IMG/VR virus record: IMGVR_UViG_3300043787_000046
Location: 4,833-68,832 of that record
Length of the DNA: 64,000 nucleotides
From: a virus
Reading direction: 5' to 3' (one strand)
Program-made: the position numbers and the translations under genes
Part shown: in pieces, positions 27,807 to 46,929 of the stretch
Numbering within the stretch: position 1 is the stretch's first letter
Layout: each line of letters opens with the position of its first letter
The notes under the pieces: model-generated
Told to the model about the DNA's origin: nothing
What the model saw: only the letters and a program-made list of their open reading frames with translations
The model's database searches: none

Positions 27807-29005
27807 TGGCCGACTGGAAATACGCGGCGACGGACCTGCTCTCGGGGCAGCTGCTGTGCGACGACCTGCCGCTGGACGTGCAGTCGCTGAGCGCGAACCT
27901 CAACGGCACGGGCACGCTCAACGGCAGCCTGAACCTGAACGAGCTGCCCGCGGTGAACACCCCGTACATCACCGCGCTCACCCCCAGGCGCGCCGTCTTG
28001 TGGGCGCTCGCGGACGGGTGGCCGGTGTGGGCCGGGATCGTCTGGGACTGGCCGCAGATGTCCATGGCGCAGGGCACGCTCAGCATCAGCGCCCAGACAA
28101 TGGACTCCCTCTGGTCGCACCGGCTGATCACTGACACCCTGGAATACCCGGAAACCGACCTGTTCACCACCTTCCTGGACCTGGTCAGCTACGGGACGAG
28201 CAAGGACAGCTCCTATATCGAGACGGGCGTCTCACCCGCCCAGACCCGCGATCCTGCCTACCTGGCGATGTTCGCCACCCAGGGGAAGGTTGCCCGGCTG
28301 GCACTGCCGTCCGGCCTCACGTCCGGGGTCCCGTGGACCGCCAGCTACACGTACTCAGACCTGACGCAGGTCTCCAGCGCGTGGAGCGACATGACGGCGA
28401 GCGGGAACCTCGAGTACGTCTTCGCCGCCGGCCTCGACACCGCCGGGGAACTGACCGTGTTCCTGCAGCTCGGGTACACCGCGCTCGGCCGCCCCCTCGC
28501 CGACTCCGGGATCGTCTTCTCCTATCCGGGCAACTGCACCGACTACGGGTGGCCTGTCACCGGGTCGCAGTCGGCCAACATGATCTTCGCCACGGCACCC
28601 CCGAACGGCAGCGAGCTGACCTGGGAAAGCACCTACCCGCACGGGGCCGACACCTCCGACCTCGCGTCATTCCCGGTGCTCGAGTCGACGGTGAGCTGGG
28701 ACGGGTCGTACGTCACGAGCCAGTCGCAGGTCAACTCGTTCGCTGACGGTCAGGTCGCCCTGATGACCGCGGGGATGACCACGCCGACCGTGAACGTCGG
28801 AGGGGCCGGGTACCCGAGGCTGCAGAACGTACAGCTCGGGGACGGCTGCCTGCTGGCGATCACGTCCCCGCTGCATCCGCCGCAGGCGGACGGGTCGCCG
28901 GGTGTCCAGCAGGAGATGCGCGTCACCGGGTGGACCGCCTACCCTCCGGGGCCGCAGCAGGCAGAGTACGTCCAGTACAGCCTCAGCGGCGTGGTGGCGT
29001 CGTGA
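27806..29005 (+). CDS. Minor tail (hub-like) protein; contains the protospacer at 28204-28236
   Basis: ATDLLSG...LNGTGTL...PVWAGIVW; position in tail module. Confidence 0.7.
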   Translation: MADWKYAATDLLSGQLLCDDLPLDVQSLSANLNGTGTLNGSLNLNELPAVNTPYITALTPRRAVLWALADGWPVWAGIVWDWPQMSMAQGTLSISAQTMDSLWSHRLITDTLEYPETDLFTTFLDLVSYGTSKDSSYIETGVSPAQTRDPAYLAMFATQGKVARLALPSGLTSGVPWTASYTYSDLTQVSSAWSDMTASGNLEYVFAAGLDTAGELTVFLQLGYTALGRPLADSGIVFSYPGNCTDYGWPVTGSQSANMIFATAPPNGSELTWESTYPHGADTSDLASFPVLESTVSWDGSYVTSQSQVNSFADGQVALMTAGMTTPTVNVGGAGYPRLQNVQLGDGCLLAITSPLHPPQADGSPGVQQEMRVTGWTAYPPGPQQAEYVQYSLSGVVAS

Positions 29006-30073: not shown

Positions 30074-31903
30074 GTGGTCGCGAACGTGTACGGTTTCGGC
30101 GGCGCGGAGATGGGCGTCTCCCCGGTAGCCGTCCAGTCCTCGGCGTACTCCGCGGTGCCCGGCAACCTGGTGCCGTGCAACATCTCCGGCGGCGGCTTCA
30201 CGGTCACGCTCCCCGAGTCCCCGGCTGACGGGTCACGCGTCGCGGTGAAGATCATCGCGACCAACGCGGCCGGGACCAATGTCCTGACTGTGGCGACCCT
30301 GGGCACCGACCGGTTCAACGAGTCCGGGGGCGCCGCCGCCGTGGCCCTCACATTGGCGAACCAGGGCCAGGTCTACCAGTACAGCGCCACGTACGGCCTG
30401 TGGTACATCATGGACGACTCGCTGCCGCTCGGCGGCCTCAAGTCCCTGTTCCGCTACGTCTTCCCGTCCGGCGACTCGACCGGGGCGACGGACACGGCAG
30501 CGATCAACGCAGGGCTTGCGAGCGGCGGTGCGGTGCAGCTCGTCGCCGCGCCATTGAGCGCCCCGTATTACATCAACGCGCCGATCACGCCGGTGACGCA
30601 GTCGCGGCTCTGGGGTGCCCAGTGGTGGTCGGCGTCGGAGAACGACAACTACTCGGCCGGCGTCGGTGCCAGCGGCGGCACCACGATCGTGATGGTGGCC
30701 GGGTTCACCGGGTCCGCCGCGATCGACATGACCAACACGACCGGCACCCAGTATTACGGGGTGGACCTCGCCGGGTTCACGATCGAGGGCTACGAGCTCA
30801 GCAGCGGCACCGTCTACGGCATCCTCGTGGACGGGGCATGGGGCGCGGGGTTCATCCGGGGCGTGTGCGTCCACCGGCCGCCCGCCGACTGCATCAGGTT
30901 CGTGACCGACACGACGAGCGGCAAGATCCCCGACGACTGGCAGGTCACGAACTGCAAGTTCAGCGCCTCCCGCAACGGCTACGGGGTGTACGCGGCCGAG
31001 CTGGCCGACTCCTGGTTCACCGACTGCGAGTCGAGCGAGAACGATCTTGACGGCTGGCTGGTCAACTACGGCGTGAACACGAGGTTCTCCGGCTGCAAAG
31101 GCGAGAACAACTCGGCTAACGGCTGGCATTTCACCGGGGTGGGCGCGCACCAGGTGCAATGGCTGACCGGGTGCTCGTCGCACATCAACCAGCACAACGG
31201 GTTCCTGTTCGACAACACCGGCCCCGCCGGCGGCGGCTCGGGCGGCGTCTACCTGCTGACGGGGTGCGTGGCGCAGCAGGACGGGCAGGCCAGCACCAGC
31301 GGCGGCTACGCGGGGTTCGCCGCCTCGGGCTGCGCCGCCCTCGTGATCGGCACCGGGTGCGTGGCCCAGGAAGACTCCACCACCGACTACCCGCAGTACG
31401 GGGCAAGCCAGGTCAGCAGCTCGGCCGGGATGTGCTTCACCGGGAGCTACCTCAAGACCTCGGCGGGCGTCACGCACGACGATGCCAGCAACACGATTGC
31501 CCTGGTCAGCCAGGGCGTGCCGTTCAGCGGCCCCTGGCTGCCGGAGGCCGGCGGCACGCTGACGGGCGCGCTCGCTCCCGCCGTGGCGCCCCTCACGTAC
31601 GGCACGTCGGTGGCGGTCAACGCCGCCCTGGGCAACGTCTTCACGCTGACCCTCACCGCGTCGACGGCGACGATCGCCGCGCCGGGCAACCCGGTAAGCG
31701 GTCAGGTGATCGAGTTCGACCTGACTCAGGGCACCGGAGGCAGCTTCACCGTGGCGTGGGCGTCCGGCTCCGGGGGCTTCGACTTCGGGACGGCCGGCGC
31801 GCCGACGCTGTCCACGACGGCGGGCGACGTCGACGCCGTGAGCTTCCGCTACTCGGCGTCCAAGGGCAAGTGGCTGTGCCTCGGCTACGCCCTGGGATTC
31901 TGA
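30074..31903 (+). CDS. Tail fibre/spike with right-handed beta-helix (putative depolymerase)
   Basis: GDSTGATDTAAINA motif and repeated N..GW/F beta-helix rungs. Confidence 0.7.
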   Translation: MVANVYGFGGAEMGVSPVAVQSSAYSAVPGNLVPCNISGGGFTVTLPESPADGSRVAVKIIATNAAGTNVLTVATLGTDRFNESGGAAAVALTLANQGQVYQYSATYGLWYIMDDSLPLGGLKSLFRYVFPSGDSTGATDTAAINAGLASGGAVQLVAAPLSAPYYINAPITPVTQSRLWGAQWWSASENDNYSAGVGASGGTTIVMVAGFTGSAAIDMTNTTGTQYYGVDLAGFTIEGYELSSGTVYGILVDGAWGAGFIRGVCVHRPPADCIRFVTDTTSGKIPDDWQVTNCKFSASRNGYGVYAAELADSWFTDCESSENDLDGWLVNYGVNTRFSGCKGENNSANGWHFTGVGAHQVQWLTGCSSHINQHNGFLFDNTGPAGGGSGGVYLLTGCVAQQDGQASTSGGYAGFAASGCAALVIGTGCVAQEDSTTDYPQYGASQVSSSAGMCFTGSYLKTSAGVTHDDASNTIALVSQGVPFSGPWLPEAGGTLTGALAPAVAPLTYGTSVAVNAALGNVFTLTLTASTATIAAPGNPVSGQVIEFDLTQGTGGSFTVAWASGSGGFDFGTAGAPTLSTTAGDVDAVSFRYSASKGKWLCLGYALGF

Positions 31904-31904
31904 C

Positions 31905-32582
31905 ATGTCCCGCACCGTCACCGCCACGGCGTCCGGGTCGGGCTCCGAGAACGGCATCCTGCTAGTCGTCAAGGTCCTCGACAACGCCGCCGTCACGCAG
32001 AACGGGGCGACCGGGAACAGCGACGCCTTCACGGTGCCCGAGCAGTCGATCACCCCCGATGACACCGGATCGTGGATCTACGGTGCCGTGATCCAGGGCG
32101 ACAACGACACGACGTTCACTGCCGCGTCCACCACGACGTTCTCTGCCAACGTCGCGGACTCGGTTCACGGCGCCGCGTACGGAGCATTCCGCAGCACCAG
32201 CACCACCACGTCCGGCACGCCCGTGACCGCAGGCGCGAGCGGCCCGACGATTCCGAGCGGCGAAGGAAACATAGCCCTCGCCGAGATCCTCGCCGCGGGG
32301 ACGCTGGCCGAGGACGCCTCGTCACCTACGGGAGTGTCCACCACGTCGGCCAAGACGATCACCACCGCGTCGTTCACGCCGCCGGCCGGGACCTTGCTGG
32401 TCGCGATGGTCTCGGCGGACTACAGCGGCTCCGGGTCCGTCACCGTGGCCGTCAGCGACACCGGAGACCTCACCTGGGACAAGCTCGCCGCGGACCCGGT
32501 CGGGCTGGCAAGCGTGTGGATCGCGCAGGTCCCGTCCGCCGCCGGCCGCGCCTCCGGGGCGATGACCGGGGGCTTCCCCTGA
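31905..32582 (+). CDS. Thr/Ser-rich tail accessory protein
   Basis: TTASFTPPAGTLLVAMV motif; follows fibre gene. Confidence 0.55.
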   Translation: MSRTVTATASGSGSENGILLVVKVLDNAAVTQNGATGNSDAFTVPEQSITPDDTGSWIYGAVIQGDNDTTFTAASTTTFSANVADSVHGAAYGAFRSTSTTTSGTPVTAGASGPTIPSGEGNIALAEILAAGTLAEDASSPTGVSTTSAKTITTASFTPPAGTLLVAMVSADYSGSGSVTVAVSDTGDLTWDKLAADPVGLASVWIAQVPSAAGRASGAMTGGFP

Positions 32583-32642
32583 CGGGCCGTGATCACGTGC
32601 AGCCCGGCTATCGCCTGCGTCACCACGCCTGAGCGGGGGCAC

Positions 32643-32963
32643 ATGGCAGTCGACTCCGGCATCCTCACCGGCATCCTGTCCTCAGCCGGCGCGGGCACCG
32701 CCATCATCGTGATCCTGCTGCTGACCGGCATCCTCGTCACCAAGCCGTACGCCGAACGAGTCGATCGCGATGCCGCGGACTGGAAAGCGGCCTACGAGGC
32801 GGAAAAGAACGCGCGCGAGACGGAGAGGCGCGCTAACGACGAGCTGCGGGCCGCCGCCCTGGTGCAGAGCCAGCGGGCCGACGCGGCGGTGGAGACCGCG
32901 AAACTCGCCCAGGCGCTGCTGGAGGACCTCCGGAAGAGGACAGCCGATGCGCCTCACCCGTAG
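32643..32963 (+). CDS. Membrane-anchored coiled-coil protein (lysis module)
   Basis: N-terminal TM segment followed by coiled coil. Confidence 0.5.
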   Translation: MAVDSGILTGILSSAGAGTAIIVILLLTGILVTKPYAERVDRDAADWKAAYEAEKNARETERRANDELRAAALVQSQRADAAVETAKLAQALLEDLRKRTADAPHP

Positions 32964-33189
32964 AAAGCGCGCATCGCAGCCGGGTGACGCGAAGGCCGCC
33001 GTCAGCAGCGCCATCACGGCCGGGGCGGAAGCTAGCGAGCGGCTCGCCAGCGCCAGCGAGACGCACGCCGCGGCGGCAGAGACGGCTGCCCATGAGCAGC
33101 GCACCGTCATCTCCGAGCTCCGGGCGATGCGCCGGGAAAACCACCTGGCCGAGATGATCCTTGCCAGCGTCAGGCGGGAGCGGCCGTGA
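32947..33189 (+). CDS. Small lysis-module protein
   Basis: RRENHLAEMI motif typical next to actinophage holins. Confidence 0.5.
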   Translation: MRLTRRKRASQPGDAKAAVSSAITAGAEASERLASASETHAAAAETAAHEQRTVISELRAMRRENHLAEMILASVRRERP

Positions 33190-33518
33190 CACAGGCACAG
33201 CTCGTGACGGATCTCGGCAACGACGCGGTGTTCGCCGCGTGCGCCGGGAGCGTGGCGTTCCTGGCCGCGTACATCCTGCTGGCGCGCGGGTACCGGACGG
33301 AGATCGGCCGGGCGCTCATCGTCATGGACGCCGGGCTGACGCTGGCGCTGGGGCCGTCCGTCGTGCACCGGCTCACCGGCCTGTCCCTGGCGAGCATCGG
33401 TTACGCCTGGTATTTCGTCGCCTCTATCGCCGTGGTCGGTCTCGCCACCTGGTGGCGGGTGTGGTTCGTGCTCAAGGTCCAGTGGCGCGGGCGGCCGAAA
33501 CCTCCGGAAGACCCGTGA
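33186..33518 (+). CDS. Putative holin
   Basis: Three TM segments; YRTEIGRALIV motif. Confidence 0.55.
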   Translation: MTQAQLVTDLGNDAVFAACAGSVAFLAAYILLARGYRTEIGRALIVMDAGLTLALGPSVVHRLTGLSLASIGYAWYFVASIAVVGLATWWRVWFVLKVQWRGRPKPPEDP

Positions 33519-33877
33519 TGCCGCCCGGCATCCTCACCAGCGCCGTGTTCGTGGCGGCGTTCGCCGCCCTGAGCGTTTTCGGGTCGGCTTACATGCTCCT
33601 GGCCCCCTGGTTCAGGAACCCGGCCGGGCGCGCCCTGATGGTCATGTCGACCGGGTTCTGGCTCGTGTCGCTGGCGGAGCTTCTCCGGCACCCGTTCGGG
33701 CTGTCCACCGCCGACAGCGCCCCGTTCGCCTGGTTCCAGGTCGCGGCGGTATCCGTGGCCGTCGTAGGGATCGGCTGGATCACGAAGGTGCTCATCAAGG
33801 CGCAGTGGCACGGAAGACGGCGCGGGCGCCGGTACTTCGAGGACAGCGGCGAGAGGCGGCATGATGGCCATCCCTGA
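33518..33877 (+). CDS. Putative holin (paralogue)
   Basis: Three TM segments; PWFRNPAGRALM motif. Confidence 0.55.
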   Translation: MPPGILTSAVFVAAFAALSVFGSAYMLLAPWFRNPAGRALMVMSTGFWLVSLAELLRHPFGLSTADSAPFAWFQVAAVSVAVVGIGWITKVLIKAQWHGRRRGRRYFEDSGERRHDGHP

Positions 33878-34075
33878 ACCGGTAGCCGCAGCCGAGCAGG
33901 CAGAGTCGAATCACACGGAGCGCGAGGATGAGCCCTGGTCGATCGAGATCCCTGACCATCCGGGCCGCACGGAGTCACCAGGCTTCCGCCGGGCAAAGGA
34001 AGCGATGCACAGGATCCTCGCCGCGATAGCCGGGCAGGCTCCGGGCGGCTTCAGCCTGATAGGGGCGATCTCCGA

Positions 34076-34705
34076 ATGACGGCACCCGTCCAGGCCCATC
34101 ATGCCGGGAGCCTGTGGGTTTTCGACGGCGAATGGTTCCTGCTCCTGAACATCGCCGGGGTGGAGTGGTCCGCCCAGTGGTCCGCCGACCCGGCGAAGGT
34201 CGATGCCCTCCGGCAGAACGCGCAGCGGCTCTACGCGCGGTTCCCGGAGACGCTCGACGAGATGGAACGCCTCGGCTACGCCGAGTGCCGCAAGATCCTT
34301 GCCGCGCCGATCACGGACCATCCCGGCGTCGCGCGGTGGACCGACAGCCTGTTCAACGCCTGCGTCCCGCTCTCACCGGGGATGCACCAGGGCGTCGTGT
34401 CCGATCATCAGGCGGTCGGCGGCTGGCATCACTACCCCAAGAGCATCTGGGATATCCAGCTCACCAGGCGCGACGATTTCCGGCTCTGGGTGACCGACGA
34501 GGAGGGGCATCCCGCGGCCGTCGCTCCCGCCGGCCCTCGCGGATCCGGGGACGGCCGGGTGCATGTCCTGTGGGCCACGCCCGGCTCGGCGCTCCACGGT
34601 GAGCACGCCGCCGCCGAGGCGGCGGCCGTACCGCACATCCTCGACGCCTGTCACCCGCTGGCCGTGCAGGCGTTCGCGGCGCAGGCAGCGGCGCCGTCGA
34701 AGTGA
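34076..34705 (+). CDS. His/Trp-rich hypothetical protein (possibly split from 33864-34079)
   Basis: QAHHAGSLW...GWHHYPK; ATGA overlap with upstream ORF. Confidence 0.5.
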   Translation: MTAPVQAHHAGSLWVFDGEWFLLLNIAGVEWSAQWSADPAKVDALRQNAQRLYARFPETLDEMERLGYAECRKILAAPITDHPGVARWTDSLFNACVPLSPGMHQGVVSDHQAVGGWHHYPKSIWDIQLTRRDDFRLWVTDEEGHPAAVAPAGPRGSGDGRVHVLWATPGSALHGEHAAAEAAAVPHILDACHPLAVQAFAAQAAAPSK

Positions 34706-35044
34706 GCGGCTGGACCTGCTACCGGTGCGGGCGCTGGTTCGTCCATGCCCGGTTTCTCGCCACGCACCTGATCGAGATGCACGGGGAGGCGTCGAGGTGA
34801 AGCACCATCCCGGCCCGGCGCCCGACCACCGCCCCGGTGAGACCTGCACGCGCACGGTCACCTGCCAGGCAACAGGCCCCGAGGAATCTGACTACTGGGA
34901 GCTGGACGAGAGGGCGCTGCCCCGGCGCCGGTACACGCTGGCCGACGTAGAGGCGTGGTGCGAGGAGCTGCGGAGACTCGGGGTGCCCGGTGACCTCGTG
35001 CTACCGGAAGCGGGCGGGCTGGTCGTGACGCTGGACGTGCAGGC

Positions 35045-35608
35045 ATGACGACCGGCATCCCGCTCCGCATCGCCGAGCCCACCGGACGCTACCGGCGCTC
35101 GCTGCGGCGGTACGTGCTCTCCGCCGACCGCGACTGTGCCGCTGGCGGCTACCACAATGCGAGCGCCGACATAGGCGACGTCGACGAGTCCGAACGCGCA
35201 GAAGCATCCGGCGACAACTGGCCGCACGATGATCCCCGCTGGCCGTCCGCGTGCGGATGCGGTTACGTGTTCGCCGCCGAGGATCGCTGGCAGCGGAACG
35301 ACAGCGGGATCTACCGGCTGCCTGATGGTGCCGAGTTCACCTTCCGCGGCTCGTTCGGGAGCACCGCGCCGCCAGGCGCGATGATCCGGGCGTCCTGGTG
35401 CGACGAGTACGCCGGGCAGCCCGGCGAGTCGTGGATCATCGCGCTCCCCGGCGGCGGTGAGTGGATCACCACCCAGAAAGCCAGGGGCGGCGGCTTCTGG
35501 GCAGTCACCGGAACGCCGCCGGGTATCACCGTCAGCCCGTCGATCTGGCACAACGCGCCGACGGGCTGGCATGGCTGGATTCGCGACGGAAAGCTGGTGG
35601 ACGTGTGA
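35045..35608 (+). CDS. Hypothetical Cys/His protein
   Basis: WPSACGCGY and TVSPSIW...WHGWIRDG motifs. Confidence 0.55.
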   Translation: MTTGIPLRIAEPTGRYRRSLRRYVLSADRDCAAGGYHNASADIGDVDESERAEASGDNWPHDDPRWPSACGCGYVFAAEDRWQRNDSGIYRLPDGAEFTFRGSFGSTAPPGAMIRASWCDEYAGQPGESWIIALPGGGEWITTQKARGGGFWAVTGTPPGITVSPSIWHNAPTGWHGWIRDGKLVDV

Positions 35609-36045
35609 GGCAGGAAGCCCCCGACCCGGAGCCGCTGAAATACCTGGTCGACCGGCTGAGGTACCGGCCCGGCTGGACATTCGAACTGGCCGACATCGAC
35701 CGCGGGCAGGGCAGTGCGGGCCTGACCCTGATCATCACCACCCGCGGCTACGACAGCTATCATCCGGGGCGCGGCGAGAACTACCGCGTCAACCACTACA
35801 TGCCCGTCCCCCCTGCCGCCTTCGATGCCAGGTCGTGGCAGCGGTGGCTGTTCGATCAGTTCCTGCTCGTGGAGCGGCACGAGGCGATGGAGTTCTTCGC
35901 GATTCGCGACTCGCCGGGCAGCGAGCACGCCGTCAGGCCGTACGCGCCGAGTCACGGCCCCGGCAACGACCCGTACCTCGTCCGCGAGTTCGGCACCGGT
36001 GTGGACCGGCGCACATCGTTCCGCGGCGACATCAACCCCGAGTGA
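35605..36045 (+). CDS. Conserved actinophage hypothetical protein
   Basis: LRYRPGWTF...VERHEAMEFF...PSHGPG. Confidence 0.55.
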   Translation: MRQEAPDPEPLKYLVDRLRYRPGWTFELADIDRGQGSAGLTLIITTRGYDSYHPGRGENYRVNHYMPVPPAAFDARSWQRWLFDQFLLVERHEAMEFFAIRDSPGSEHAVRPYAPSHGPGNDPYLVREFGTGVDRRTSFRGDINPE

Positions 36046-36482
36046 AGGCTTCCCTCACCCGCCCGGCCGTGCTCGGGAGCTTCGACGGCTGCGCGAGCCT
36101 GCTCGGCGTCATCATCTACCTGCTGATCACTCATCCGGCGCTGATCTTCCCCACGGCAGTCTCCGGAGCCCTCAGCAGCGCGGTGAGCATGGGAGGCGGG
36201 GAGTTCCTCTCCGACTCCGACAGTGGCCTGCCAGCGTCCGGCGTGATGGCGCTGGCGACCTTCGCCGGGGCGGCGCTGCCCGCTGTCCCGTTCGCGTTCG
36301 GCACCGGCCCGGCGGAGATCGCCGCGTCGGCCCTGTTCATCGCCGCGATCGGTATCGCGGTCGCCGGGATGCGGCCTAACCGCGGCCTCGGCCTCGCGCT
36401 GCTGGAGACGTTCGCCCTGCTCGCCGCTGTCGCCCTGGTCGTGGTGGCGTGCAGCTTGCTACTGCCCGGAGGTGCCGCATGA
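36042..36482 (+). CDS. VIT1/CCC1-like membrane protein
   Basis: AVLGSFDG...ALSSAVSMGGGEFLS motif; ~5 TM segments. Confidence 0.65.
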   Translation: MKASLTRPAVLGSFDGCASLLGVIIYLLITHPALIFPTAVSGALSSAVSMGGGEFLSDSDSGLPASGVMALATFAGAALPAVPFAFGTGPAEIAASALFIAAIGIAVAGMRPNRGLGLALLETFALLAAVALVVVACSLLLPGGAA

Positions 36483-36955
36483 CGGATCCCGCGAAGCAAG
36501 ACGCCCCCGAGCGGGAGTCGGCGTTCCTGAAGGTCGCGGACTATGTTTCCGCGGCGATGGGACGCCCCGCCAACATCATGATCTGGCTGCTGGCGGTGAT
36601 CGCGTGGACGGGGATCTTCGCGTTCGGCGGGTCCCGCATCGCGGCCGGCACGTGGCTGCCCGCGTGGTTCACCAGCCAGGGATTCAACTTCCCCTTGAAT
36701 CTCATAACTACCGTAGCTGAGCTCTTCATCGGGTTTCTGGTGGCCGCCGCGTCGAACCGCAGCGAGCGGAACCTTGAGGCGACTCTCGCAGGGATCCAGG
36801 CAGCCGAGGACCGGGACGCCGAGCTTGAGTCGGGCCTGACGGCGGCGATCGCGGCGAACACGGAGCTGACGCAGAAGGTCCATGATCTCACCGCCGCGGT
36901 CCACCAGCTTCTCAGCGCGCAGGCCGCGGGGAGTCCGGGCGCTGCGCCGGCATGA
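36479..36955 (+). CDS. Two-TM membrane protein (DUF1003/low-affinity iron permease-like)
   Basis: ADYVSAAMG...LNLITT...AASNR plus coiled coil. Confidence 0.5.
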   Translation: MTDPAKQDAPERESAFLKVADYVSAAMGRPANIMIWLLAVIAWTGIFAFGGSRIAAGTWLPAWFTSQGFNFPLNLITTVAELFIGFLVAAASNRSERNLEATLAGIQAAEDRDAELESGLTAAIAANTELTQKVHDLTAAVHQLLSAQAAGSPGAAPA

Positions 36956-37038
36956 CCGTCGCGCTCTGGATCGCTATCGCGGTCGTCATCGTCATCACCA
37001 TGTGGCCCCGGCCACCCCGTACATGAGAGGCCCGTCAC

Positions 37039-37890
37039 ATGACTGCTAGCGCGCAGGGGATCGATGTCTCGGCCTATCAGCCTCCGCTGACCCCGGCCGC
37101 CCTGGAAGGGCTCGACTTCGCGTTCTGCAAGGCCACGAACGGCGACCAGCTCGCGGACGCGAACTTCGCCCGGAACTGGGCGGCGGTGAAGGCGGCGGGC
37201 ATCCGCAGAGGTGCCTACCACGAGCTGGTGTCCCCGGCTGCGGCGTCCGGGCTGGTCCAGGCCCGGTACTTCCTGGCGACCGTGATCGCGGAGGGCCTGG
37301 AGGCTGGCGACATGCTGGCGGTCGTTGTCTCGGACTACCAGGGCGTGACGGACAGCGAAGTCAAAGCGTTCTGCGATTCTGTCCATGCTGCCGCCCCGGC
37401 TTCCCCGGTGCTGGTCTACTCGGACCTGACCGTGGCGAAGGCGCTGACCTCGTGCACCGGCTATGACCTGTGGGTGGCGTGGCCGTCAGCTACCGCCCCG
37501 GCGCTGGTCGCACCGTGGGGCACCTGGCGTTTCTGGCAGTGGGGTTCACCGGGGAACCTCGACCACGACGCGTTCAACGGGACGAGGGCGGAGCTTGACG
37601 CGTGGATCGCGGGGCGTGCGGGGAAGCCCGCGCCGGCCGGCCCGCGTCCCGTACCTGACTGGCAGGAGGCCATGATGCAGCAGCTACCCGAGGTCACAGC
37701 CGGAAGTGCCGACGCCGCCGCTGTGCGGACCGTACAGGGGCTCTGCGTCTCGCGAGGGCACCTGATCGCCGTCGACGGGGATTTCGGGCCTGTGACCCAG
37801 ATGGCGGTCAGGAACGTTCAGTCGGGCGCCGGGATCGTCGCCGACGGGGTGGTCGGGCCGGCGACCTGGCCTGTGCTGCTCGGGGTGTGA
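37039..37890 (+). CDS. Endolysin, GH25 muramidase plus peptidoglycan-binding domain
   Basis: GIDVSAYQ, KATNG, RGAYH, WRFWQW, VDGDFGP/ADGVVGPATW. Confidence 0.9.
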   Translation: MTASAQGIDVSAYQPPLTPAALEGLDFAFCKATNGDQLADANFARNWAAVKAAGIRRGAYHELVSPAAASGLVQARYFLATVIAEGLEAGDMLAVVVSDYQGVTDSEVKAFCDSVHAAAPASPVLVYSDLTVAKALTSCTGYDLWVAWPSATAPALVAPWGTWRFWQWGSPGNLDHDAFNGTRAELDAWIAGRAGKPAPAGPRPVPDWQEAMMQQLPEVTAGSADAAAVRTVQGLCVSRGHLIAVDGDFGPVTQMAVRNVQSGAGIVADGVVGPATWPVLLGV

Positions 37891-38237
37891 GCCGCGCCGT
37901 TCGCGTGCGGCGGCGCGTCCTGGTCCCCCGGCTTCCGCTCGGCTCGCGGCCTGCCGGTGATCGCCCAGTACCGGTTCCGTGCGCCCGTCGCCGACATGCC
38001 GGTGAGGGCAGCTATCGCGGCGAACGACAGGCCCTCCCGCTCGCGCAGCTCGACGATCTTGCTGTCGGGCACATCGGGGCGCTTGCGCGGACCGCGCGGG
38101 CGCGTCGCGTCGCCGAGCCACCGCTGCACTGTACGCGGGTCGACGCCGAGCCGGGCGGCGATGGCCCGCGTGGTCAGCGTCGTCGCGTAGAGCTGCCGGG
38201 CTTGCGCCCGCTTGCCTTCGTCCGTCTTGCGGGTCAC
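37818..38237 (-). CDS. Double helix-turn-helix protein
   Basis: TRAIAARLGVDPRTVQRWL and LSFAAIAALTGMSATGARNRY. Confidence 0.7.
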   Translation of the reverse strand: MTRKTDEGKRAQARQLYATTLTTRAIAARLGVDPRTVQRWLGDATRPRGPRKRPDVPDSKIVELREREGLSFAAIAALTGMSATGARNRYWAITGRPRAERKPGDQDAPPHANGAAHTPSSTGQVAGPTTPSATIPAPD

Positions 38238-38536
38238 GGCACCAGGACCGCGCCGGTCACGACGGCGGTAACGGTCTGGCCGTAGGGGGTGACGGTCAGC
38301 TCGGCGGTGTCGGCGGGGCTGCCGGTGACCCGGAGTTGCCATGTCTCGCGGAGTTCCTCGGACCTGCCGCTGGCGCGCCGGACGTGGAGTTTGCCCTCGG
38401 CCGTGATGATGTCGCCCGGCACGGCGTCGATCTCGCGGGCGGTGGTGCTGGCATAGGTCGCGCCGATCCGGATCCAGCACGGGCCGGCCATCTTGCTGCG
38501 GCTCGGGATGCCTGTCTGGGTGATGGTGACGGTCAT
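38234..38536 (-). CDS. Hypothetical protein
   Basis: Coupled to neighbouring genes in a small minus-strand operon. Confidence 0.55.
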   Translation of the reverse strand: MTVTITQTGIPSRSKMAGPCWIRIGATYASTTAREIDAVPGDIITAEGKLHVRRASGRSEELRETWQLRVTGSPADTAELTVTPYGQTVTAVVTGAVLVP

Positions 38537-38537
38537 G

Positions 38538-38823
38538 TCATGCCCGCCCGTCGCGACGGTAGAAGGTCACGGAGCGGTCAGAGCGGTCGGTGACGCGCAT
38601 CCACGGGTCGCCGTCGCCGGCTTCCATATCCCGCGCGCGCCCGGCGGGGATGGTGAGACGCCCGTCTCGATATAGGAGCTGTCCCCATATCCCGCGCGCG
38701 CCCGGCGGGGATGCCTCGCGAGTAGCTGACTTCGACTATCTGCCCCGTGTTGCGTGCGGGGGTGGTAAATACGATGCTGTCCGGGACTTCGGAGGCCGGG
38801 ACAGCGCGGTACGTCCAGCTCAT
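38538..38823 (-). pseudogene. 74-aa hypothetical gene frameshifted by a 61-bp insertion
   Basis: Removing one 28-bp copy plus the 33-bp insert restores MSWTY...RDMEAGDGDPWMRVTDRSDRSVTFYRRDGRA*, ending 1 nt before the next ATG; RBS GAGGAG. Confidence 0.85.
38624..38712 (-). CRISPR. Ectopic single-spacer unit: 28-bp duplication / 33-bp self-derived spacer / 28-bp duplication
   Basis: ccatatcccgcgcgcgcccggcggggat at 38624-38651 and 38685-38712; the insert at 38652-38684 is the exact reverse complement of 28204-28236. Confidence 0.9.
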
Positions 38824-38914
38824 CTGGTGCTCCTCGGGTTGCTCTTTGCTGACATCACCAATAATGCCGCAATGGAGCGCGCATGTCAACCGAAGTAGCG
38901 AAGCCACCGGGGAG

Positions 38915-39358
38915 TTAGCTGCCCCCGAGCACCTTCCAGATCTTCCGGGTCTCCGACGCCCTGGCGGCGGCTGCGCACGACCGCAGGGCACGCTCCTGCC
39001 GCTGCGCGAACTCCGGTGTGGCTTCGATCGCCGCGGCCCTCTGGACGCGCCACAGCCTCATCGGGGCGGCGCTGGAGACGTGCGGGTTCTTCACGTGCAG
39101 ATCCGGGGCGCCGAGCAGGTCCCGGATCATCGCCTCTGTCCAGCCGCGTTTCTTCAGCCCGGCCGCGCCGGTGCACTCGGTCGCCGCCTTGATCTCGGGC
39201 CACCGTTCACGGATGTCTTCTGCTGCCTCAGCCGACCAGCGTCCGCGCGGCCGGTCGGGTGCCGGGAGCAGCCCGAAGTCCCGCGCCCGGTCGACCTGGC
39301 TGTGCCAGGTGCCGAGATGGTCCGCTAGCTGGTGCGGCCCGTAATCACGCGACGGCAT
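38915..39358 (-). CDS. Hypothetical protein (possible DNA-binding)
   Basis: LKKRGWTEAMIRDLLGAPD..NPH..AAPMRLW motif. Confidence 0.55.
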   Translation of the reverse strand: MPSRDYGPHQLADHLGTWHSQVDRARDFGLLPAPDRPRGRWSAEAAEDIRERWPEIKAATECTGAAGLKKRGWTEAMIRDLLGAPDLHVKNPHVSSAAPMRLWRVQRAAAIEATPEFAQRQERALRSCAAAARASETRKIWKVLGGS

Positions 39359-39410
39359 AGAAGCCACGATAACGCCCCTCACTGACATTCCACCGACGAA
39401 AGGAACCCCC

Positions 39411-39695
39411 ATGACCGACACTGCCGGATCAGCCGCAGAGACACCGGGGCCGCTAGCGCACATCCGCTCCTGGTTCGAACGGGACATCGCCCCGGAACTG
39501 GCCGCCCTCCGCGCCGACGTGGCCAAGCTCCGCGAGGCCGCCCCGTCCCTGGCGACCGTCGCGACCACCCTCGAAACGGTCGTGAAGACGATCGACCCGG
39601 CCGCGTCCCCGGAAGTGGCAGCGGCAAGCGCCGCGCTCGGCGACGCCGTGAAGGTGATCACGCGGATCGCCGGGGAGCTTGCCCCTGGCATGTAG
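39411..39695 (+). CDS. Hypothetical helical protein
   Basis: RBS AAAGGAA; followed by terminator. Confidence 0.55.
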   Translation: MTDTAGSAAETPGPLAHIRSWFERDIAPELAALRADVAKLREAAPSLATVATTLETVVKTIDPAASPEVAAASAALGDAVKVITRIAGELAPGM

Positions 39696-39727
39696 GCACC
39701 GGACGCGGCCAGCAGCCCTCACGCATG

Positions 39728-39774
39728 CCGCCCCCCGCCGCCGGTCCTCGCGGACTGGCGGCGGGGGCGGTTTT
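39728..39774 (+). terminator. Intrinsic terminator
   Basis: Long GC hairpin ccgccccccgccgccgg...ctggcggcgggggcgg then TTTT. Confidence 0.65.
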
Positions 39775-41647: not shown

Positions 41648-41941
41648 TCACCGTGTTCCCGGACGCGGCCTGACCATCAGCGTCAGCCCCTCGAAGTCCG
41701 CCGCCGTCCACCGTCCCGCCCCGGCCGTCAGGATCTCGCAGCCTTGCTCCCTGCCCCGGTCAGTGACCACCATGACCGCCGACCCTCCTTGCAGGACGCC
41801 GAACCGGACCCGGCGCCACAGGTGCTCCCGGACACGCCGCGATACTTTCCCGGTGAACACGCCCGGGGCGATCTCCAGGAGCCACCGGGACAGGTCGCCG
41901 CGCAGCCCCGGCGGCACCGAAGTGAGGACAAGGACGATCAC
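41648..41941 (-). CDS. cas2: Type I-E CRISPR-associated Cas2
   Basis: MIVLVLTSVPPGLRGDLSRWLLEIAPGVFTGKVSRRVREHLW, EQG, DFEGLTL. Confidence 0.95.
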   Translation of the reverse strand: MIVLVLTSVPPGLRGDLSRWLLEIAPGVFTGKVSRRVREHLWRRVRFGVLQGGSAVMVVTDRGREQGCEILTAGAGRWTAADFEGLTLMVRPRPGTR

Positions 41942-42942
41942 GGCCCGTCCTCCCCGTAGCTGACGCCGCCCGGCACAGTGCCGTGGTCGTCGATCAGGTC
42001 CGGCACCGCGATCCCCGCGACTGTCTCGCCGTCATCTCCGGGGGCGCCGAGCAGTCCCCGGATGTCATCGGCGATGCGGGGCAGCAGCCGCGCTGAGACG
42101 ATCGCGTCCCGCACCGCGCGCCTGGTCTTAGCCCCGAGATCCCGGCCGCCTTCCGCGGCGATCCCGAACGCCGCCGGGATCGTGACCTCCGCCTTGTACA
42201 GGTCCGCGATGTCGTACACGAAGGACAGCTGGTGCCCGGTGTGGACGAATCCGAGCCCTGGACTGCACCCGAGGTGCAGGATCGCGGCGTGGGTGATGCC
42301 GTAGAGGGCGGAGTTCGCGGCCGACAGGCACCTGTTCACCGGGTCACCCGCGCTCCAGTCCTTCGGGTCGTATCTCCGGCCGCGCCATGCGGTGCCGGTT
42401 TTCTCTGCGTGCAGCCGGTAGCAGGCGCGGACCCGGGCGCCTTCCCGGCCGCGCAGTTGCTGCATGCTCAGCCGGGAGACATCCTCGCCGGGGAACCGCA
42501 TCGCGTACATCTGCCGGGCGACGGCGATGCGGGTTTTCTGCCCGGTGACGAGCGCGGCCTGCCGTTGCAGCAGCACCGACGATGCCGCTGCTGCCGTGGT
42601 GCCGGCGTAGAGGCGGACGCCTTCCTCGCCCACCCACGCGACGGTGCACCCGCTGCCGGCCAGGAGCGAGATGGCGGCGTGGGTGATCGTCACGCCGGGG
42701 CCGAGGAGAAGCGCCGCGAGCACAGCAGCGGGGATGCTCGCGACCCCTTCGGCTTGCCAGATGGTGACTGCGTTCAGGTCGCGGTCGATCCTTGCATGCT
42801 CAACGTGCAGGAAGCTGAGCCGGTCGCTGATGCGGCTGAGTTCCGTCGCTTTGGCCGGTAATGCGCCTTTCATTTGTCGCGCTCCCCTCTGCCAGTCAAG
42901 GAACCCGCCGCCCCCTGGACCCTCCTGCAACTCGGCCGTCAT
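41938..42942 (-). CDS. cas1: Type I-E CRISPR-associated Cas1
   Basis: LLLGPGVTITHAA, WVGEEGVRLYA, LRGREGARVR, LGFVHTG, SFVYDIADLYK. Confidence 0.97.
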   Translation of the reverse strand: MTAELQEGPGGGGFLDWQRGARQMKGALPAKATELSRISDRLSFLHVEHARIDRDLNAVTIWQAEGVASIPAAVLAALLLGPGVTITHAAISLLAGSGCTVAWVGEEGVRLYAGTTAAAASSVLLQRQAALVTGQKTRIAVARQMYAMRFPGEDVSRLSMQQLRGREGARVRACYRLHAEKTGTAWRGRRYDPKDWSAGDPVNRCLSAANSALYGITHAAILHLGCSPGLGFVHTGHQLSFVYDIADLYKAEVTIPAAFGIAAEGGRDLGAKTRRAVRDAIVSARLLPRIADDIRGLLGAPGDDGETVAGIAVPDLIDDHGTVPGGVSYGEDGP

Positions 42943-43027
42943 CCCGCGCGCCAGATTCCGGGTCGGCCAGACCCGGATCTGCGGGCCGCGCCTGCTAATG
43001 CCGGACAGGCGCCCCTTGCTGACCAGA

Positions 43028-43782
43028 CCGTCGCCCCTGCGGGCCGCACGCGTGGCTCCTTGCCTCGATTACCCACCTTGTACCGCCGTCCCCGCGCCCG
43101 CAGGCCGGCACGACGAAGGCACTAACACCCAGCAAAATATCAAACCGTCGCCCCAGCGCCCGTGGGCCGCACATCGCGCTGCTGGCCGTGCCCGGCAGCG
43201 TCATCCCGTCGCCCCAGCGCCTGTGGGCCGCACTCCGGCGTGCGTTTCACCCCGGTGCCCGGTGGCCCGTCGCCCCAGCGCCCGTGGGCCGCACCTGGCG
43301 TCACGGACGATGTAGCGGGCCGACCTCCCGTCGCCCCAGCGCCCGTGGGCCGCACACAGCACGCTGTTGCCAGTCCCGAGTTCTCAGACCGTCGCCCCAG
43401 CGCCCGTGGGCCGCACACGAAGCCTCGATCGCGAACGCGGCACGCCGGTCCGTCGCCCCAGCGCCCGTGGGCCGCACACCAACCGCTCATGGTGGGGGCT
43501 GCGCCTTGGCCCGTCGCCCCAGCGCCCGTGGGCCGCACCTTCGGCCTCCATCACCATCTGAGTCAGGTTCACCGTCGCCCCAGCGCCCGTGGGCCGCACC
43601 TCCCGTCCCTAGCCAACCGACGGGCCGACATACCGTCGCCCCAGCGCCCGTGGGCCGCACCACATTCTGAGCAAAGAGTAGCAATGTTCATTCCCGTCGC
43701 CCCAGCGCCCGTGGGCCGCACGCCATCTCGATGGCGCAGGATATGAGCGGTGTCCCGTCGCCCCAGCGCCCGTGGGCCGCAC
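43028..43782 (-). CRISPR. CRISPR array: 13 repeats (11 intact or near-intact, 2 degenerate), 12 spacers of 33 bp
   Basis: Repeat GTGCGGCCCACGGGCGCTGGGGCGACGG (28 bp, minus strand), 61-bp period from 43145 to 43755; degenerate copies at 43028 and 43083 mark the trailer end. Confidence 0.97.
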
Positions 43783-43844
43783 CCTGTCCTCATCAGGTGT
43801 TCTCTCGCCGGCTGTTACGTCAGCCGGGACGCATCATTCGCGGA

Positions 43845-44654: not shown

Positions 44655-45527
44655 TTAATACGGGGCTTCCCAGTCGGAGTCGAACGCCTGGCCGCCTTCG
44701 AGGCCGGTCGGGACGTCCATGATGTGGTCGTACTCCATGACCACATCGTCGGCGGTCCAGTCCGCCGACGACGCGAGCGTCCCGGAGATCCCGGAGCCTG
44801 CGACGGTCGCGGCGGTGAAGCCGGTCTGGCCGAAGTCGGCGAGGTTGTAGCCGCCGCCGGGACCGCCGCCGGGGGCCTCGTCGACCACCTCAGCCGACGA
44901 GTCATGGCACACCGACCCGGACGGGCAGCCCTCGTACACCGAGATCTCGCCATCGATCGTCACGTCCTTCAGCACCAGGTGATACAGCCTGGTGGACGTG
45001 CTGTAGGTCACCGACACGTCGATGGCGTCGCCGGGGCGCACCCCGGAGTAGGCGACCGGGTTCAGCGGGTACATCTCGTACCAGGCGTAGAGGCCGGTGC
45101 CGCCGCCTGCGTAGCAGTAGTCCGCGGTGCCTGTCTGCTCGACGGTCCCGTCACTGAACCCGTCGAGGCCTACCCAGTCGGAGTTGTATGCGTAGCCGGA
45201 CGTGCCCGGCGTGCACTTCCCGCTGTCGAGCGACGGGATGGTGTAGTTCACGCTGGCCGACGTGATCGTCTTGCCTGAGCGGGCGGCGGCCACCCAGCCT
45301 GACCAGTTCGAGCTGTAGTAGGTGCTGGACCGCTGGGGCTTCACTGCGGGCAGGTGGGTGCGGGGCAGTTCCGCTGCCGGGGCGGCCCTCAGCGGGCCGC
45401 TGACCGTCACCCGGGGGCTGGCTGACGGCACCGCTGCCGGGCTTGCTGATGCCGCTGCGGGCGCGAGCGCCAGTCCGGCCGTGAGGGCGACGGCTGATGC
45501 TGCCGCCAGGATCCTTGCTGTTCTCAA
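44655..45527 (-). CDS. Secreted G1 (peptidase A4) glutamic endopeptidase
   Basis: Signal peptide; SSNWSGW, WVGLDG, VEQTGT, AWYEMYP, SAEVVDEAP. Confidence 0.85.
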   Translation of the reverse strand: MRTARILAAASAVALTAGLALAPAAASASPAAVPSASPRVTVSGPLRAAPAAELPRTHLPAVKPQRSSTYYSSNWSGWVAAARSGKTITSASVNYTIPSLDSGKCTPGTSGYAYNSDWVGLDGFSDGTVEQTGTADYCYAGGGTGLYAWYEMYPLNPVAYSGVRPGDAIDVSVTYSTSTRLYHLVLKDVTIDGEISVYEGCPSGSVCHDSSAEVVDEAPGGGPGGGYNLADFGQTGFTAATVAGSGISGTLASSADWTADDVVMEYDHIMDVPTGLEGGQAFDSDWEAPY

Positions 45528-45556
45528 GGGGCTAGTTCCTTTGTGTCGTGGTCGTG

Positions 45557-46018
45557 CTAGGTCGCCCGGCCGGGGGTCCCGGCCGGGTCGTCTTGTGTGT
45601 GCCATCCGAGGAACCGGGCCTGCTCGTCATGCATCCCGTCCGGCGCGGCCGTGAACCATCCCGCGTCCAGCGCCCCGGCCACCGGCACCGGATCCCCGTC
45701 CCAGTCCGCCTCGAACGCCGCCCCCACCGGGGTATCGGTGCCCTCCAGGTAGTGGGACGGGTACTCGATGAACCCTGCGTGGCGGGAGGCTGTGACGGTC
45801 ACGCCGAGTTTGTCCCGCGCGACGCGTTCCACGGCCTGGTGCAGCGGTTCGGCGAAGCGGACGGTGCCGCCGGGGATGTGCCAGCGGCCGGCGCACGGCC
45901 CTGAATCGCGGCGGGTGAGGAACACGCCGCGGTGGTCGCGGAGGATGACCTCCACGGTCAGGCGCGGGACGCGGGCGTAGATCGCGTCGAATTCCTCCGT
46001 GGTGAGGGGATGGGTCAC
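45557..46018 (-). CDS. NUDIX hydrolase (GDP-mannose hydrolase-like)
   Basis: VPRLTVEVIL...WHIPGGTVRFAEPLHQAVERVARDKLG (atypical NUDIX box). Confidence 0.7.
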   Translation of the reverse strand: MTHPLTTEEFDAIYARVPRLTVEVILRDHRGVFLTRRDSGPCAGRWHIPGGTVRFAEPLHQAVERVARDKLGVTVTASRHAGFIEYPSHYLEGTDTPVGAAFEADWDGDPVPVAGALDAGWFTAAPDGMHDEQARFLGWHTQDDPAGTPGRAT

Positions 46019-46929
46019 CGTGCCGCCTTGACCGCAGCCCGGTACGCGGCGAGCGCAGGCGGGTCATTTTCCAGCCGCCAGTCCTGGTGATAGACGCCCT
46101 TGTCCTGCTTCTCGTCGAACCACACCAGGCCGAGCAGCTTGTCTGCCTTCACCCCGGCGAACAGGCCTGTGATCTGCGCGTCACGGTCAGCCGTCGTCCC
46201 CACCGCGGTCTCCGCGATCAGGACCGGGGCGGTGGTGAACTTCCGTACCTGCGCGACGGTCGCGCCGAACACCGACGCGAAGGTGTCGGTGGAGTAGTAG
46301 TAATAGCCGTCGATCCCGACCCAGCCGACGTAGGCGGATCCTGGCCACCACTGGCGCAGGGAATCCGTGGCCACGTTGGTTGAGTTGACAGTCCACATCC
46401 ACGTCACGTTTGATGCGCCGACGGCGCGGAAGACGCCCACGACGTGCCGCCATGCCGCGATGTATACGGCGGGAGCGGTGTGACCGGCACCCCAGGGGTA
46501 CCAGCCTCCGTTCATCTCGTGATCGAAGCTGAGGACCACCGGATGCCCGTACGCCTTCACCGAGAGGGCGTAGGCCCGCAGGAAGGCGTCGAAGCGTCCC
46601 GCCGTGATCCCCGCCAGCGGCTCGCGGCCGGACTGGATCTGGACGAACGGGACCGCGCCGTGAGCGTGCGCCTGCGCGGCGAACCCCGCGGCGAACCGCT
46701 CGAACCACGCCGAGTAGTAGAGGGCCAGCTCCGGCGCGGCGCCAGTCGCCGCAGCGAACCGGGTGATCCCGGCATAGGAGGCGGGGGCGCCGGGCTCGTA
46801 CACGCCGTTGAGGGAATCCGGGATCGCGGGGATCGTCACCGGGCGAGGGGCCGGCGGGACAGGTGCCGTCGCCGCGCAGCCTGTGAGGGCGGCGGACAGG
46901 GCGATGCCTGCGAGGGCGGCGAGTTTCAC
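46015..46929 (-). CDS. GH26 glycoside hydrolase lipoprotein
   Basis: Lipobox LTGC; HEMNGGWYPW, WWPGSAYVGWVGIDGY, VLIAET. Confidence 0.85.
   Translation of the reverse strand: MKLAALAGIALSAALTGCAATAPVPPAPRPVTIPAIPDSLNGVYEPGAPASYAGITRFAAATGAAPELALYYSAWFERFAAGFAAQAHAHGAVPFVQIQSGREPLAGITAGRFDAFLRAYALSVKAYGHPVVLSFDHEMNGGWYPWGAGHTAPAVYIAAWRHVVGVFRAVGASNVTWMWTVNSTNVATDSLRQWWPGSAYVGWVGIDGYYYYSTDTFASVFGATVAQVRKFTTAPVLIAETAVGTTADRDAQITGLFAGVKADKLLGLVWFDEKQDKGVYHQDWRLENDPPALAAYRAAVKAAR

Follow-up and report, generated by a model that had tools for sequence, protein, structure and literature searches.

The window analysed here is a stretch of 64,000 nt from the IMG/VR virus record IMGVR_UViG_3300043787_000046, whose full length is 68,832 nt. 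On its minus strand lies a small gene broken by an insertion of 61 bp. The insertion consists of an exact 28-nt duplication and a 33-nt insert, and its total size equals that of the unit found throughout the CRISPR array of the same phage. The features of the locus, of the donor sequence and of the neighbouring cas genes are collected in Table 1.

Table 1 Features of the disrupted locus, the donor sequence and the phage cas region (window coordinates)
Feature	Position	Strand	Remarks
Disrupted small gene	38538-38823	-	74 codons without the 61 bp; with them, frame shifts after codon 46, stop at 38578, 81 aa
Next gene, 100 aa, no family	38234-38536	-	originally began 1 nt past the stop of the small gene
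Upstream ('leader-side') copy of the 28-nt target-site duplication	38685-38712	-	same as 38624-38651; sole copy in empty alleles; encodes IPAGRARDM of the small protein
Inserted spacer, 33 nt	38652-38684	-	starts with the G that ends the donor AAG; missing in L004 and in contigs of X6 and X7
Downstream copy of the 28-nt target-site duplication	38624-38651	-	exact repeat of the upstream copy
Donor protospacer (28204-28236) with AAG PAM (28202-28204)	28202-28236	+	within the minor tail protein gene 27638-29005
cas1, type I-E (Cas1e), candidate integrase	41938-42942	-	TIGR03638, 361 bits (cut-off 215.6)
cas2, type I-E (Cas2e)	41648-41941	-	TIGR01873, 64.4 bits (cut-off 33.15)
CRISPR array	43083-43782	-	11 exact or near-exact 28-nt repeats, 33-nt spacers, period 61; low-coordinate end with 11th spacer and degenerate terminal repeat
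Tyrosine integrase gene	52533-54011	+	PF00589, 52.6 bits, over the cut-off; record 58424-58771, window 53592-53939

The arrangement predicted on the minus strand, an exact 28-bp duplication around a 33-mer, was recovered in our analysis. The 28-mer has two matches in the window, a number reached by none of 100 dinucleotide shuffles. A repeat search returned it in a 29-nt form (38624-38652 and 38685-38713, spacing 61): a C precedes each copy, so that the event can be parsed as either 28+33 or 29+32. The duplicated target has the length of the array repeat, 28 nt (29 with the ambiguous C), and the 33-nt insert that of all 11 array spacers. Outside the array, it is the only direct repeat with a spacing of 61 in the window. 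The 4.8 kb of the record to the left of the window contain no further one, which makes a single such unit in 68.8 kb.

The insert, read from 38684 to 38652 on the minus strand, is identical at 33 of 33 positions to 28204-28236 on the plus strand. These are its only two matches in the window at up to three mismatches, where chance would provide none. The gene holding the donor matches the minor tail protein family phrog_1885 (E 8.7e-36). Both this self-origin and the AA that precedes the donor, at 28202-28203, had been predicted and were reproduced; the two bases complete an AAG whose G is kept beside the upstream repeat copy. AAG occupies 962 of 127,996 trinucleotide positions (0.75%). It is the PAM of the type I-E system of E. 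coli and may not be the PAM proper to the phage system; more broadly, the 28+33 geometry and an AAG PAM are general features of type I-E. In the phage array, only 6 of 10 scored spacers begin with G, and the three newest of the 11 spacers have no exact protospacer in IMG/VR.

When the 61 bp are taken out in silico, a frame of 74 codons runs from the ATG at 38823 to a stop that ends at 38538, one base before the next ATG at 38536, which bears out the original prediction. The peptide IPAGRARDM is common to the two halves of the gene, which tile one uninterrupted domain in homologues, the comparison set being P0001 and 33 family representatives, 15 of which were aligned. None of these 15 has a frameshifting break at the insertion site; one carries an in-frame insertion of 6 residues nearby. 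The expected intact gene exists in relatives: the 61 bp are missing from the homologues, no frameshift interrupts the 15 aligned ones at the site, and the site is empty in near-identical copies of the phage.

The phage encodes, beside its 28+33 array, an intact pair of Cas1e and Cas2e. Both proteins align over their full length to solved integrase subunits: Cas1e scores 322 bits against the solved Cas1 8hi1_A, in a match that spans residues 24-331 and includes a conserved GFVHTGH...YDIADLYK stretch, and Cas2e matches solved Cas2 chains with E values of 1e-15 to 1e-17. With cas1e and cas2e adjoining an array of ~28-nt repeats and 32-33-nt spacers, the region has the make-up of a type I-E adaptation module. 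Searches of the 68.8-kb record for the effector genes cas3, cse1, cas7e and cas6e gave no match (cse2 and cas5e lay outside the search). The nearest bacterial Cas1e proteins are 48-62% identical and belong mostly to Actinomycetota. As for the array, the 28+33 geometry given by the original prediction stands, and we corrected its make-up to 11 spacers followed by a degenerate terminal repeat near 43083-43111, the leader being on the 43783-43844 side. None of the 11 spacers is self-derived, each being at least 10 mismatches away from anything else in the 68,832-nt record. The array repeat has no exact match in IMG/VR, in a scan that may omit records of the window's own genome. The tyrosine integrase gene suggests that the phage is temperate. 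It is a soil phage.

Other data hold both forms of the site. Contigs from two public runs, X6 (2,258 nt) and X7 (293 nt), join 38623 directly to 38685 and skip exactly 38624-38684, with two other differences in the former and none in the latter. In X7 the donor is present, its flanks in the tail gene being matched, while the target site is empty. A metagenome contig, L004, aligns at 99.5% to 31825-38652 and 38685-39736, with one repeat copy shared between the two segments. The inserted form, in turn, is seen in independent Logan contigs that enter a repeat copy from the flank and continue into the 33-mer: they cover 38200-38681 and 38655-39100 in X1, 38500-38655 and 38670-38910 in X5, and confirm both junctions in each case. 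The insertion is therefore polymorphic in nature, three other data sets holding the empty ancestral allele. Given this polymorphism and flanks that are 99.5-100% identical to those of the empty alleles, the event is recent. In X1, the unitig of the 33-mer has a depth of 24.8, roughly that of the site flanks (11.8-14.2) and of the tail-gene unitigs (10.4-14.1) summed. By these depth sums the insertion is fixed in X1, or nearly so, which implies that the mutant phage is viable. A blastn search with 37800-39700 against 50,697 GenBank phage records returned nothing, and no exact copy of the 28-mer turned up in IMG/VR, again in a scan that may omit records of the window's own genome.

We consider it very probable that the insertion was made by a type I-E Cas1-Cas2 acting off the array, whichever enzyme was responsible. 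This is the footprint originally predicted, and it is supported by the 28+33 geometry, the PAM, the retained G and the presence of Cas1e-Cas2e in cis, all of which fit type I-E. The integrase would have taken its prespacer, 33 nt long, from the minor tail gene of the phage itself, with the cut beside the AAG PAM and the G retained. Insertion would then have taken place not at the leader-repeat junction of the array but in ordinary coding sequence of the small phage gene. Two staggered attacks 28 nt apart, with repair of the resulting gaps, would duplicate those 28 nt and yield a 61-bp repeat-spacer-repeat unit that shifts the frame of the gene.

As to the enzyme, we lean towards the phage's own Cas1e-Cas2e, encoded ~3 kb from the site and beside an array whose units have this 28+33 geometry too. 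A host type I-E Cas1-Cas2 would leave the mechanism unchanged; it could have acted during an infection that yielded progeny or on the prophage, a stage made likely by the tyrosine integrase. The geometry and the AAG PAM, common to type I-E, would suit such an enzyme too. The target site was compared with repeats of both origins. It matches the array repeat at 15 of 28 positions in the orientation of the insertion, the value originally predicted, and at 12 of 28 when reversed; however, 1,513 of the 126,448 28-mers in the window (1.2%) match the repeat at 15 or more of 28 positions and some reach 20 of 28. The most frequent repeat at the closest Cas1e loci, a common bacterial I-E repeat, agrees with the site at 16 of 28 positions, which 0.29% of sites reach, and over 63 bacterial I-E repeats the agreement ranges from 15 to 17 of 28. 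The site is thus as close to the ordinary repeats of actinobacterial I-E systems as to the unusual one of the phage, so that the acting enzyme is not assignable from it.

The site had been described as a GC palindrome, a view that our analysis does not sustain: it folds no better than its composition predicts (z = -0.35), and 73 of 200 shuffles fold equally well. Its predicted stem (positions 4-10 / 15-22, with a 4-nt loop) sits at the place of the canonical I-E stem (5-11 / 16-22), which speaks for a host enzyme, whereas the A-GG that ends both the site and the phage repeat, in place of the ATCC of bacterial repeats, speaks against it. A crude filter for similarity plus hairpin passes 161 28-mers, 4 of them at the site itself; statistics of this kind neither single out the site nor separate the phage enzyme from that of a host. 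No similarity to the leader is evident at the site. Likeness to the repeat may still have guided the choice of the target. Three further points go against a host enzyme, which on the whole we regard as rather unlikely: none of 185,579 species genomes contains the array repeat, the phage has an intact Cas1e-Cas2e pair of its own in cis, and donor and target are both phage DNA.

An origin independent of Cas proteins is improbable. Template switching during replication, MMBIR-type break repair or some undescribed process common to the lineage would have to duplicate 28 nt and copy 33 nt from 10 kb away. Such processes can produce a duplication with a templated insert, and one junction does have a 1-nt ambiguity, the C. 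However, the other junction has no microhomology, and there is a single unit of this kind in the 68.8 kb. The length of the repeat, the length of the resident spacers and a correctly oriented, AAG-flanked donor (background 0.75%) would moreover all have to coincide by chance.

Virus-borne mini-CRISPR arrays and solitary repeat units have been described (Faure et al. 2019; Medvedeva et al. 2019, summarised in PMC11656645), and the present one resembles them as a repeat-spacer-repeat unit with one spacer that lies in a viral genome. Its size would fit the one- or two-spacer arrays of that summary, and it might in principle be a functional mini-array that uses a host Cas effector against related phages. 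We hold this to be very unlikely. According to the same source, the repeats of mini-arrays equal those of the host and their spacers mostly target related viruses, whereas here the 'repeat' belongs to the reading frame for a conserved small protein and occurs once in the empty alleles. Its best agreement with the 63 bacterial I-E repeats is 17 of 28 positions, and with the phage's own repeat it is 15 of 28. The spacer is self-derived, matching the carrier's tail gene at 33 of 33 positions next to a PAM of functional type, and the unit is a recent insertion that breaks a gene. It does not belong to the class itself, though it may illustrate how a mini-array is born.

An assembly chimera placing the tail-gene 33-mer in the small gene is hardly credible: the record is indeed a metagenome assembly and the repeated 33-mer exceeds common k-mer sizes, but independent Logan contigs cross both junctions, entering the 33-mer from each flank (X1 contigs reach 38681 from one side and 38655 from the other; those of X5 reach 38655 and 38670), the depths in X1 add up, and a chimera does not make an exact 28-nt target duplication.

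Returning to integration by a type I-E Cas1-Cas2, the question arises of why the phage tolerates the unit. It could be processed into a self-targeting crRNA; we infer instead that it is tolerated because the pseudo-repeat would not be processed into crRNA. The absence of self-derived spacers among the 11 of the array fits the purging of self-targeting spacers that can be processed and the survival of one that cannot. We tentatively propose a wider picture, which we would not yet back at even odds: the adaptation-only Cas1e-Cas2e of a temperate actinobacterial phage may sample the phage's own DNA and occasionally integrate it into the phage genome at sites that are not CRISPR, with self-derived spacers surviving only off the array, where the pseudo-repeat is left unprocessed. 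Such off-array-only survival would explain why there is one ectopic spacer of this type and none in the array.

Non-canonical integration by Cas1-Cas2, giving rise to neo-CRISPR units, was reported in E. coli over-producing the two proteins; two other species offered circumstantial evidence for it (Nivala, Shipman and Church 2018, Nat Microbiol 3:310). On our reading, the phage unit shares with those units a type I-E integrase, an insert of spacer size, a duplication of repeat length at a non-CRISPR target and possible effects on fitness. It differs from the cases described there in being natural, with no over-expression and with both alleles in environmental populations, and in that donor and target belong to one phage genome that encodes its own Cas1e-Cas2e. 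Set against that report, the mechanism is already known from E. coli, and the phage provides a new and unusually well supported natural example.

Other systems resemble it in part. Vibrio phage ICP1 carries a type I-F CRISPR-Cas with an adaptation module (PMC11656645), and our phage likewise has cas1, cas2 and an array; compared with the systems of the ICP1 type as presented there, its module is of type I-E, its genome is of ordinary size, cas3, cse1, cas7e and cas6e find no match, and what matters here is mis-integration rather than interference. In the type II-A systems of Streptococcus, ectopic spacer acquisition within arrays is described (PMC7999890, PMC5338259). There, too, Cas1-Cas2 inserts a spacer away from the leader-proximal repeat, but the targets in those accounts are genuine internal repeats of the array, whereas here the target is non-CRISPR coding sequence ~4.4 kb from the array. 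The open-access literature that we searched yielded no description of off-array integration into a phage genome.

According to papers citing Nivala et al. 2018, natural cases of off-array integration have so far rested on circumstantial scars. Here, a 100% identical donor with its PAM, the geometry of the resident array, integrase genes in cis and the ancestral allele in three data sets are found together. The empty site and the native leader-repeat form a defined pair of substrates, so that the strictness of natural I-E site choice becomes testable. The same holds for the laxity of integrases borne by mobile elements and for the seeding of new arrays, or of viral mini-arrays, by such accidents. 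If our reading is correct, a virus-borne CRISPR integrase would act as an insertional mutagen of its carrier, and mutagenesis of its own genome would be a cost of carrying an adaptation module. Such events would also be a natural source of one-spacer units and a plausible route by which viral mini-arrays are born.

Neither the product of the broken gene nor that of the next gene matches a Pfam family, and the next gene and the homologue P0001 have no PHROG match. For the neighbouring 100-aa protein we found one weak relative, L003, with 37% identity over 46 residues.

Two exact copies of a 28-nt sequence flank a 33-nt insert on the minus strand, within a small phage gene (see table). A scan for direct repeats reports the pair as 29 nt with a spacing of 61, because a C precedes each copy, so that 28+33 and 29+32 are both valid readings of the event. 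At up to three mismatches the 28-mer has two matches in the window, while two matches arise in none of 100 shuffles. No further 61-spaced direct repeats outside the CRISPR array were found, either in the window or in the 4.8 kb that precede it in the record.

The 33-mer occurs at exactly two places in the window, the second being on the plus strand in an ORF that matches PHROG 1885 'minor tail protein' (E = 8.7e-36). AA stands directly 5' of this donor copy and the first G of the 33-mer completes AAG, a motif found at 962 of the window's 127,996 trinucleotide positions (0.75%). In the ectopic unit, this G is retained and adjoins the upstream repeat copy.

From its ATG at 38823 (minus), the small gene reads for 46 residues before the insertion shifts the frame, giving a product of 81 residues that ends at 38578. 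Deleting the 61 bp in silico yields a 74-codon frame whose stop has its last base at 38538, leaving a single base before the next gene's ATG at 38536; with the insertion, this 1-nt gap becomes 41 nt. The original prediction, made from the sequence by eye, had described a 28-bp duplication around a 33-mer from the minor tail gene with an AAG, and a restored 74-aa ORF ending 1 nt before the next start. The exact copies, the two locations of the 33-mer and the AA 5' of the donor bear out the former, and the in-silico removal reproduces the latter.

A search with the first 46 residues returned one protein, P0001 (73 aa, 69% identity). Its residues 3-41 align to the upstream half (38685-38823, minus) and its residues 37-68 to the frame starting at the downstream repeat copy (38539-38651, minus); matching both halves, it is continuous across the point of interruption. 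A complete search of 1.84 billion representatives using P0001 as query yielded 33 proteins at E <= 1e-3, four of them at E <= 1e-10. In an alignment of the two window halves with 15 of these proteins, the halves together cover a single domain, their overlap being IPAGRARDM. None of the 15 has a frameshifting break at the site; one, P0017, carries an in-frame six-residue insertion nearby. The small gene is truncated by the insertion. Its domain of about 70 aa, without a Pfam or PHROG family, stands alone in some of the homologues P0002-P0034 and C-terminally in others of 140-200 aa, and is repeated 3-5 times in two proteins of about 515-546 aa.

The source record is a linear viral sequence of 68,832 nt, estimated to be 55% complete. 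Twenty public sequencing runs hold at least part of 38300-39000, and four (X1, X5, X6 and X7) were compared over 38200-39100. In X6, from soil and from another sample and study, a 2,258-nt contig covers 38200-38623 and 38685-39063 with exactly 61 bases absent and two other differences from the window. In X7 (peat, another year), a 293-nt contig lacks exactly the same 61 bases with zero other differences, and a 1,237-nt contig places the 33-mer within the tail gene, with loose ends that match the tail-gene flanks: this population has the donor but an empty target. Among metagenome contigs scanned for the 28-mer, one (L004) carried it, in a single copy. Aligned to 31825-38652 and 38685-39736 at 99.5% identity, the two pieces sharing 29 nt of L004, it is a third independent empty allele.

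In X1, possibly the source sample, contigs covering 38200-38681 and 38655-39100 each enter the 33-mer via a repeat copy and end inside it, as assembly on a de Bruijn graph should when it meets a repeat of 33 nt. The depth of the 33-nt unitig (24.8) is close to that of the site flanks (14.2, 11.8) and that of the tail-gene unitigs (14.1, 10.4) added together. X1 moreover yielded no contig skipping the 61 bases. The inserted form has therefore reached, or almost reached, fixation there, and the small gene is dispensable in at least this one population. Both junctions are also backed in X5, another sample, by contigs 38500-38655 and 38670-38910. Comparing alleles across the junctions at contig level, we find the inserted one in X1 and X5 and the empty one in X6, X7 and L004; together, these results reject both an assembly chimera and a conserved ancestral sequence.

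Features of the ectopic unit, its donor and the phage integration genes
Feature	Position	Strand	Remarks
Upstream repeat copy	38712-38685	minus	28 nt
Insert	38684-38652	minus	33 nt
Downstream repeat copy	38651-38624	minus	28 nt
Donor copy of the 33-mer	28204-28236	plus	33 nt
Minor tail protein ORF	27638-29005		contains donor
cas2e	41648-41941	minus	TIGR01873, 64 bits (cut-off 33)
cas1e	41938-42942	minus	TIGR03638, 361 bits (cut-off 215.6)
Degenerate terminal repeat	near 43083-43111	minus	closes eleventh spacer, low-coordinate array end
CRISPR array	directly upstream of cas1e	minus	28-nt repeats, 33-nt spacers, period 61
Tyrosine integrase, 492-aa ORF	52533-54011		PF00589, 52.6 bits

The phage, of ordinary size, carries an adaptation-only type I-E module at 41648-43844, ordered leader, array, cas1e, cas2e on the minus strand. 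In the whole 68.8-kb record, possibly incomplete, the four effector families searched, cas3, cse1, cas7e and cas6e, had no match. Phage Cas1 residues 24-331 align with the solved Cas1 8hi1_A (322 bits) and E. coli Cas1 (225 bits), with conservation of the GFVHTGH...YDIADLYK region, which we take to hold the catalytic His and Asp; the phage Cas2 matches solved Cas2 chains. Judging by the degenerate low-coordinate repeat, the leader lies towards 43783-43844 and the array runs along the minus strand, that of the ectopic unit. With its AT-richer eleventh spacer, the 43083-43144 segment is leader-like at first sight but marks the trailer end.

The array repeat is an unusual variant, identical at 17/28 positions to the common actinobacterial I-E repeat and absent from 185,579 species genomes and IMG/VR. 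None of the 11 spacers is self-matching, each lying at least 10 mismatches from anything else in the record, and the three newest have no exact target in IMG/VR. Among spacers in 43173-43754, the first base (minus orientation) is G in only six of ten scored; PAM-derived first bases are more uniform in E. coli.

The ectopic unit shows every mark of type I-E integration: a repeat-length duplication, a spacer-length insert, an AAG donor, a kept G and the strand sense of the best match to the array repeat (15/28 positions, against 12/28 for the reverse complement). Together with the empty alleles, these support the original reading of off-array integration, and Cas1-Cas2 very probably made the unit. 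We propose that Cas1-Cas2, loaded with a prespacer out of replicating or broken phage DNA, would have made two attacks at a non-CRISPR location, on phosphodiesters separated by 28 nt, and that repair of the gaps would have duplicated this stretch.

As to the enzyme, we lean towards the phage's own Cas1e-Cas2e, the simplest source because it is encoded in cis, intact, and beside an array of the same 28+33 geometry. A host type I-E integrase is the main, less probable alternative: the site agrees with the commonest bacterial repeat in 16/28 positions (15-17/28 over 63 repeats), its predicted stem-loop lies at the canonical I-E position, and the phage may have a prophage stage, its tyrosine integrase gene suggesting a temperate lifestyle. 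However, site and phage repeat both end in A-GG, whereas the 63 bacterial I-E repeats beside the closest Cas1e genes end ATCC-like. A Cas-independent duplication with templated insert is improbable, as it requires three coincidences (28, 33 and a correctly oriented AAG) with microhomology of at most 1 nt. A functional viral mini-array is contradicted by a 'repeat' that is coding sequence, a self-matching spacer and a broken gene, and an assembly artefact by the X1, X5, X6 and X7 contigs.

The weight first placed on 15/28 identity plus a palindrome proved unjustified: 1,513 of 126,448 28-mers (1.2%) resemble the array repeat as closely or more so, some at 20/28, and the site folds no better than its composition predicts (z = -0.35), its fold being equalled by 5.5% of 5,000 random window 28-mers. 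A crude combined similarity and hairpin filter passes 161 28-mers, four at the site itself. Site choice therefore appears relaxed or largely stochastic, in agreement with a rare accident. Inside the tape-measure-like gene, the 28-mer 20667-20694 (plus) matches the common bacterial I-E repeat at 22/28 with a central hairpin: a far better repeat mimic than the hit site, yet without insertion.

Were the unit transcribed and processed as a CRISPR repeat is, the guide would match the tail gene beside a proper PAM. Persistence of the inserted allele, alongside the lack of self-derived spacers in the array, suggests purging of self-targeting spacers that can be processed, and tolerance of the ectopic one because its pseudo-repeat goes unrecognised.

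Off-array integration as a kind is not new. According to papers citing Nivala, Shipman and Church 2018, over-produced E. coli Cas1-Cas2 integrates off-array, spawning neo-CRISPR units; natural evidence in two other species is called circumstantial in one of these citing papers. PMC11656645 reviews viral mini-arrays as well as CRISPR systems borne by phages. In the present case, donor, target and candidate integrase share one phage genome and the ancestral allele still circulates: the distinction lies in the completeness of evidence and the single-genome setting.

Elsewhere in the window, four tandem copies of a 90-nt unit (18865-19224, 60-100% identity) lie just before an ORF of 1,254 aa and extend into its start; this ORF contains a tail lysozyme domain and presumably encodes the tape measure protein. 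Next to the array on its leader side, 44655-50335 (minus) encodes a peptidase A4 family protein, a NUDIX hydrolase, a family 2 glycosyltransferase and a PMT_2-like membrane transferase, and looks like a surface-glycan cassette carried by the phage.
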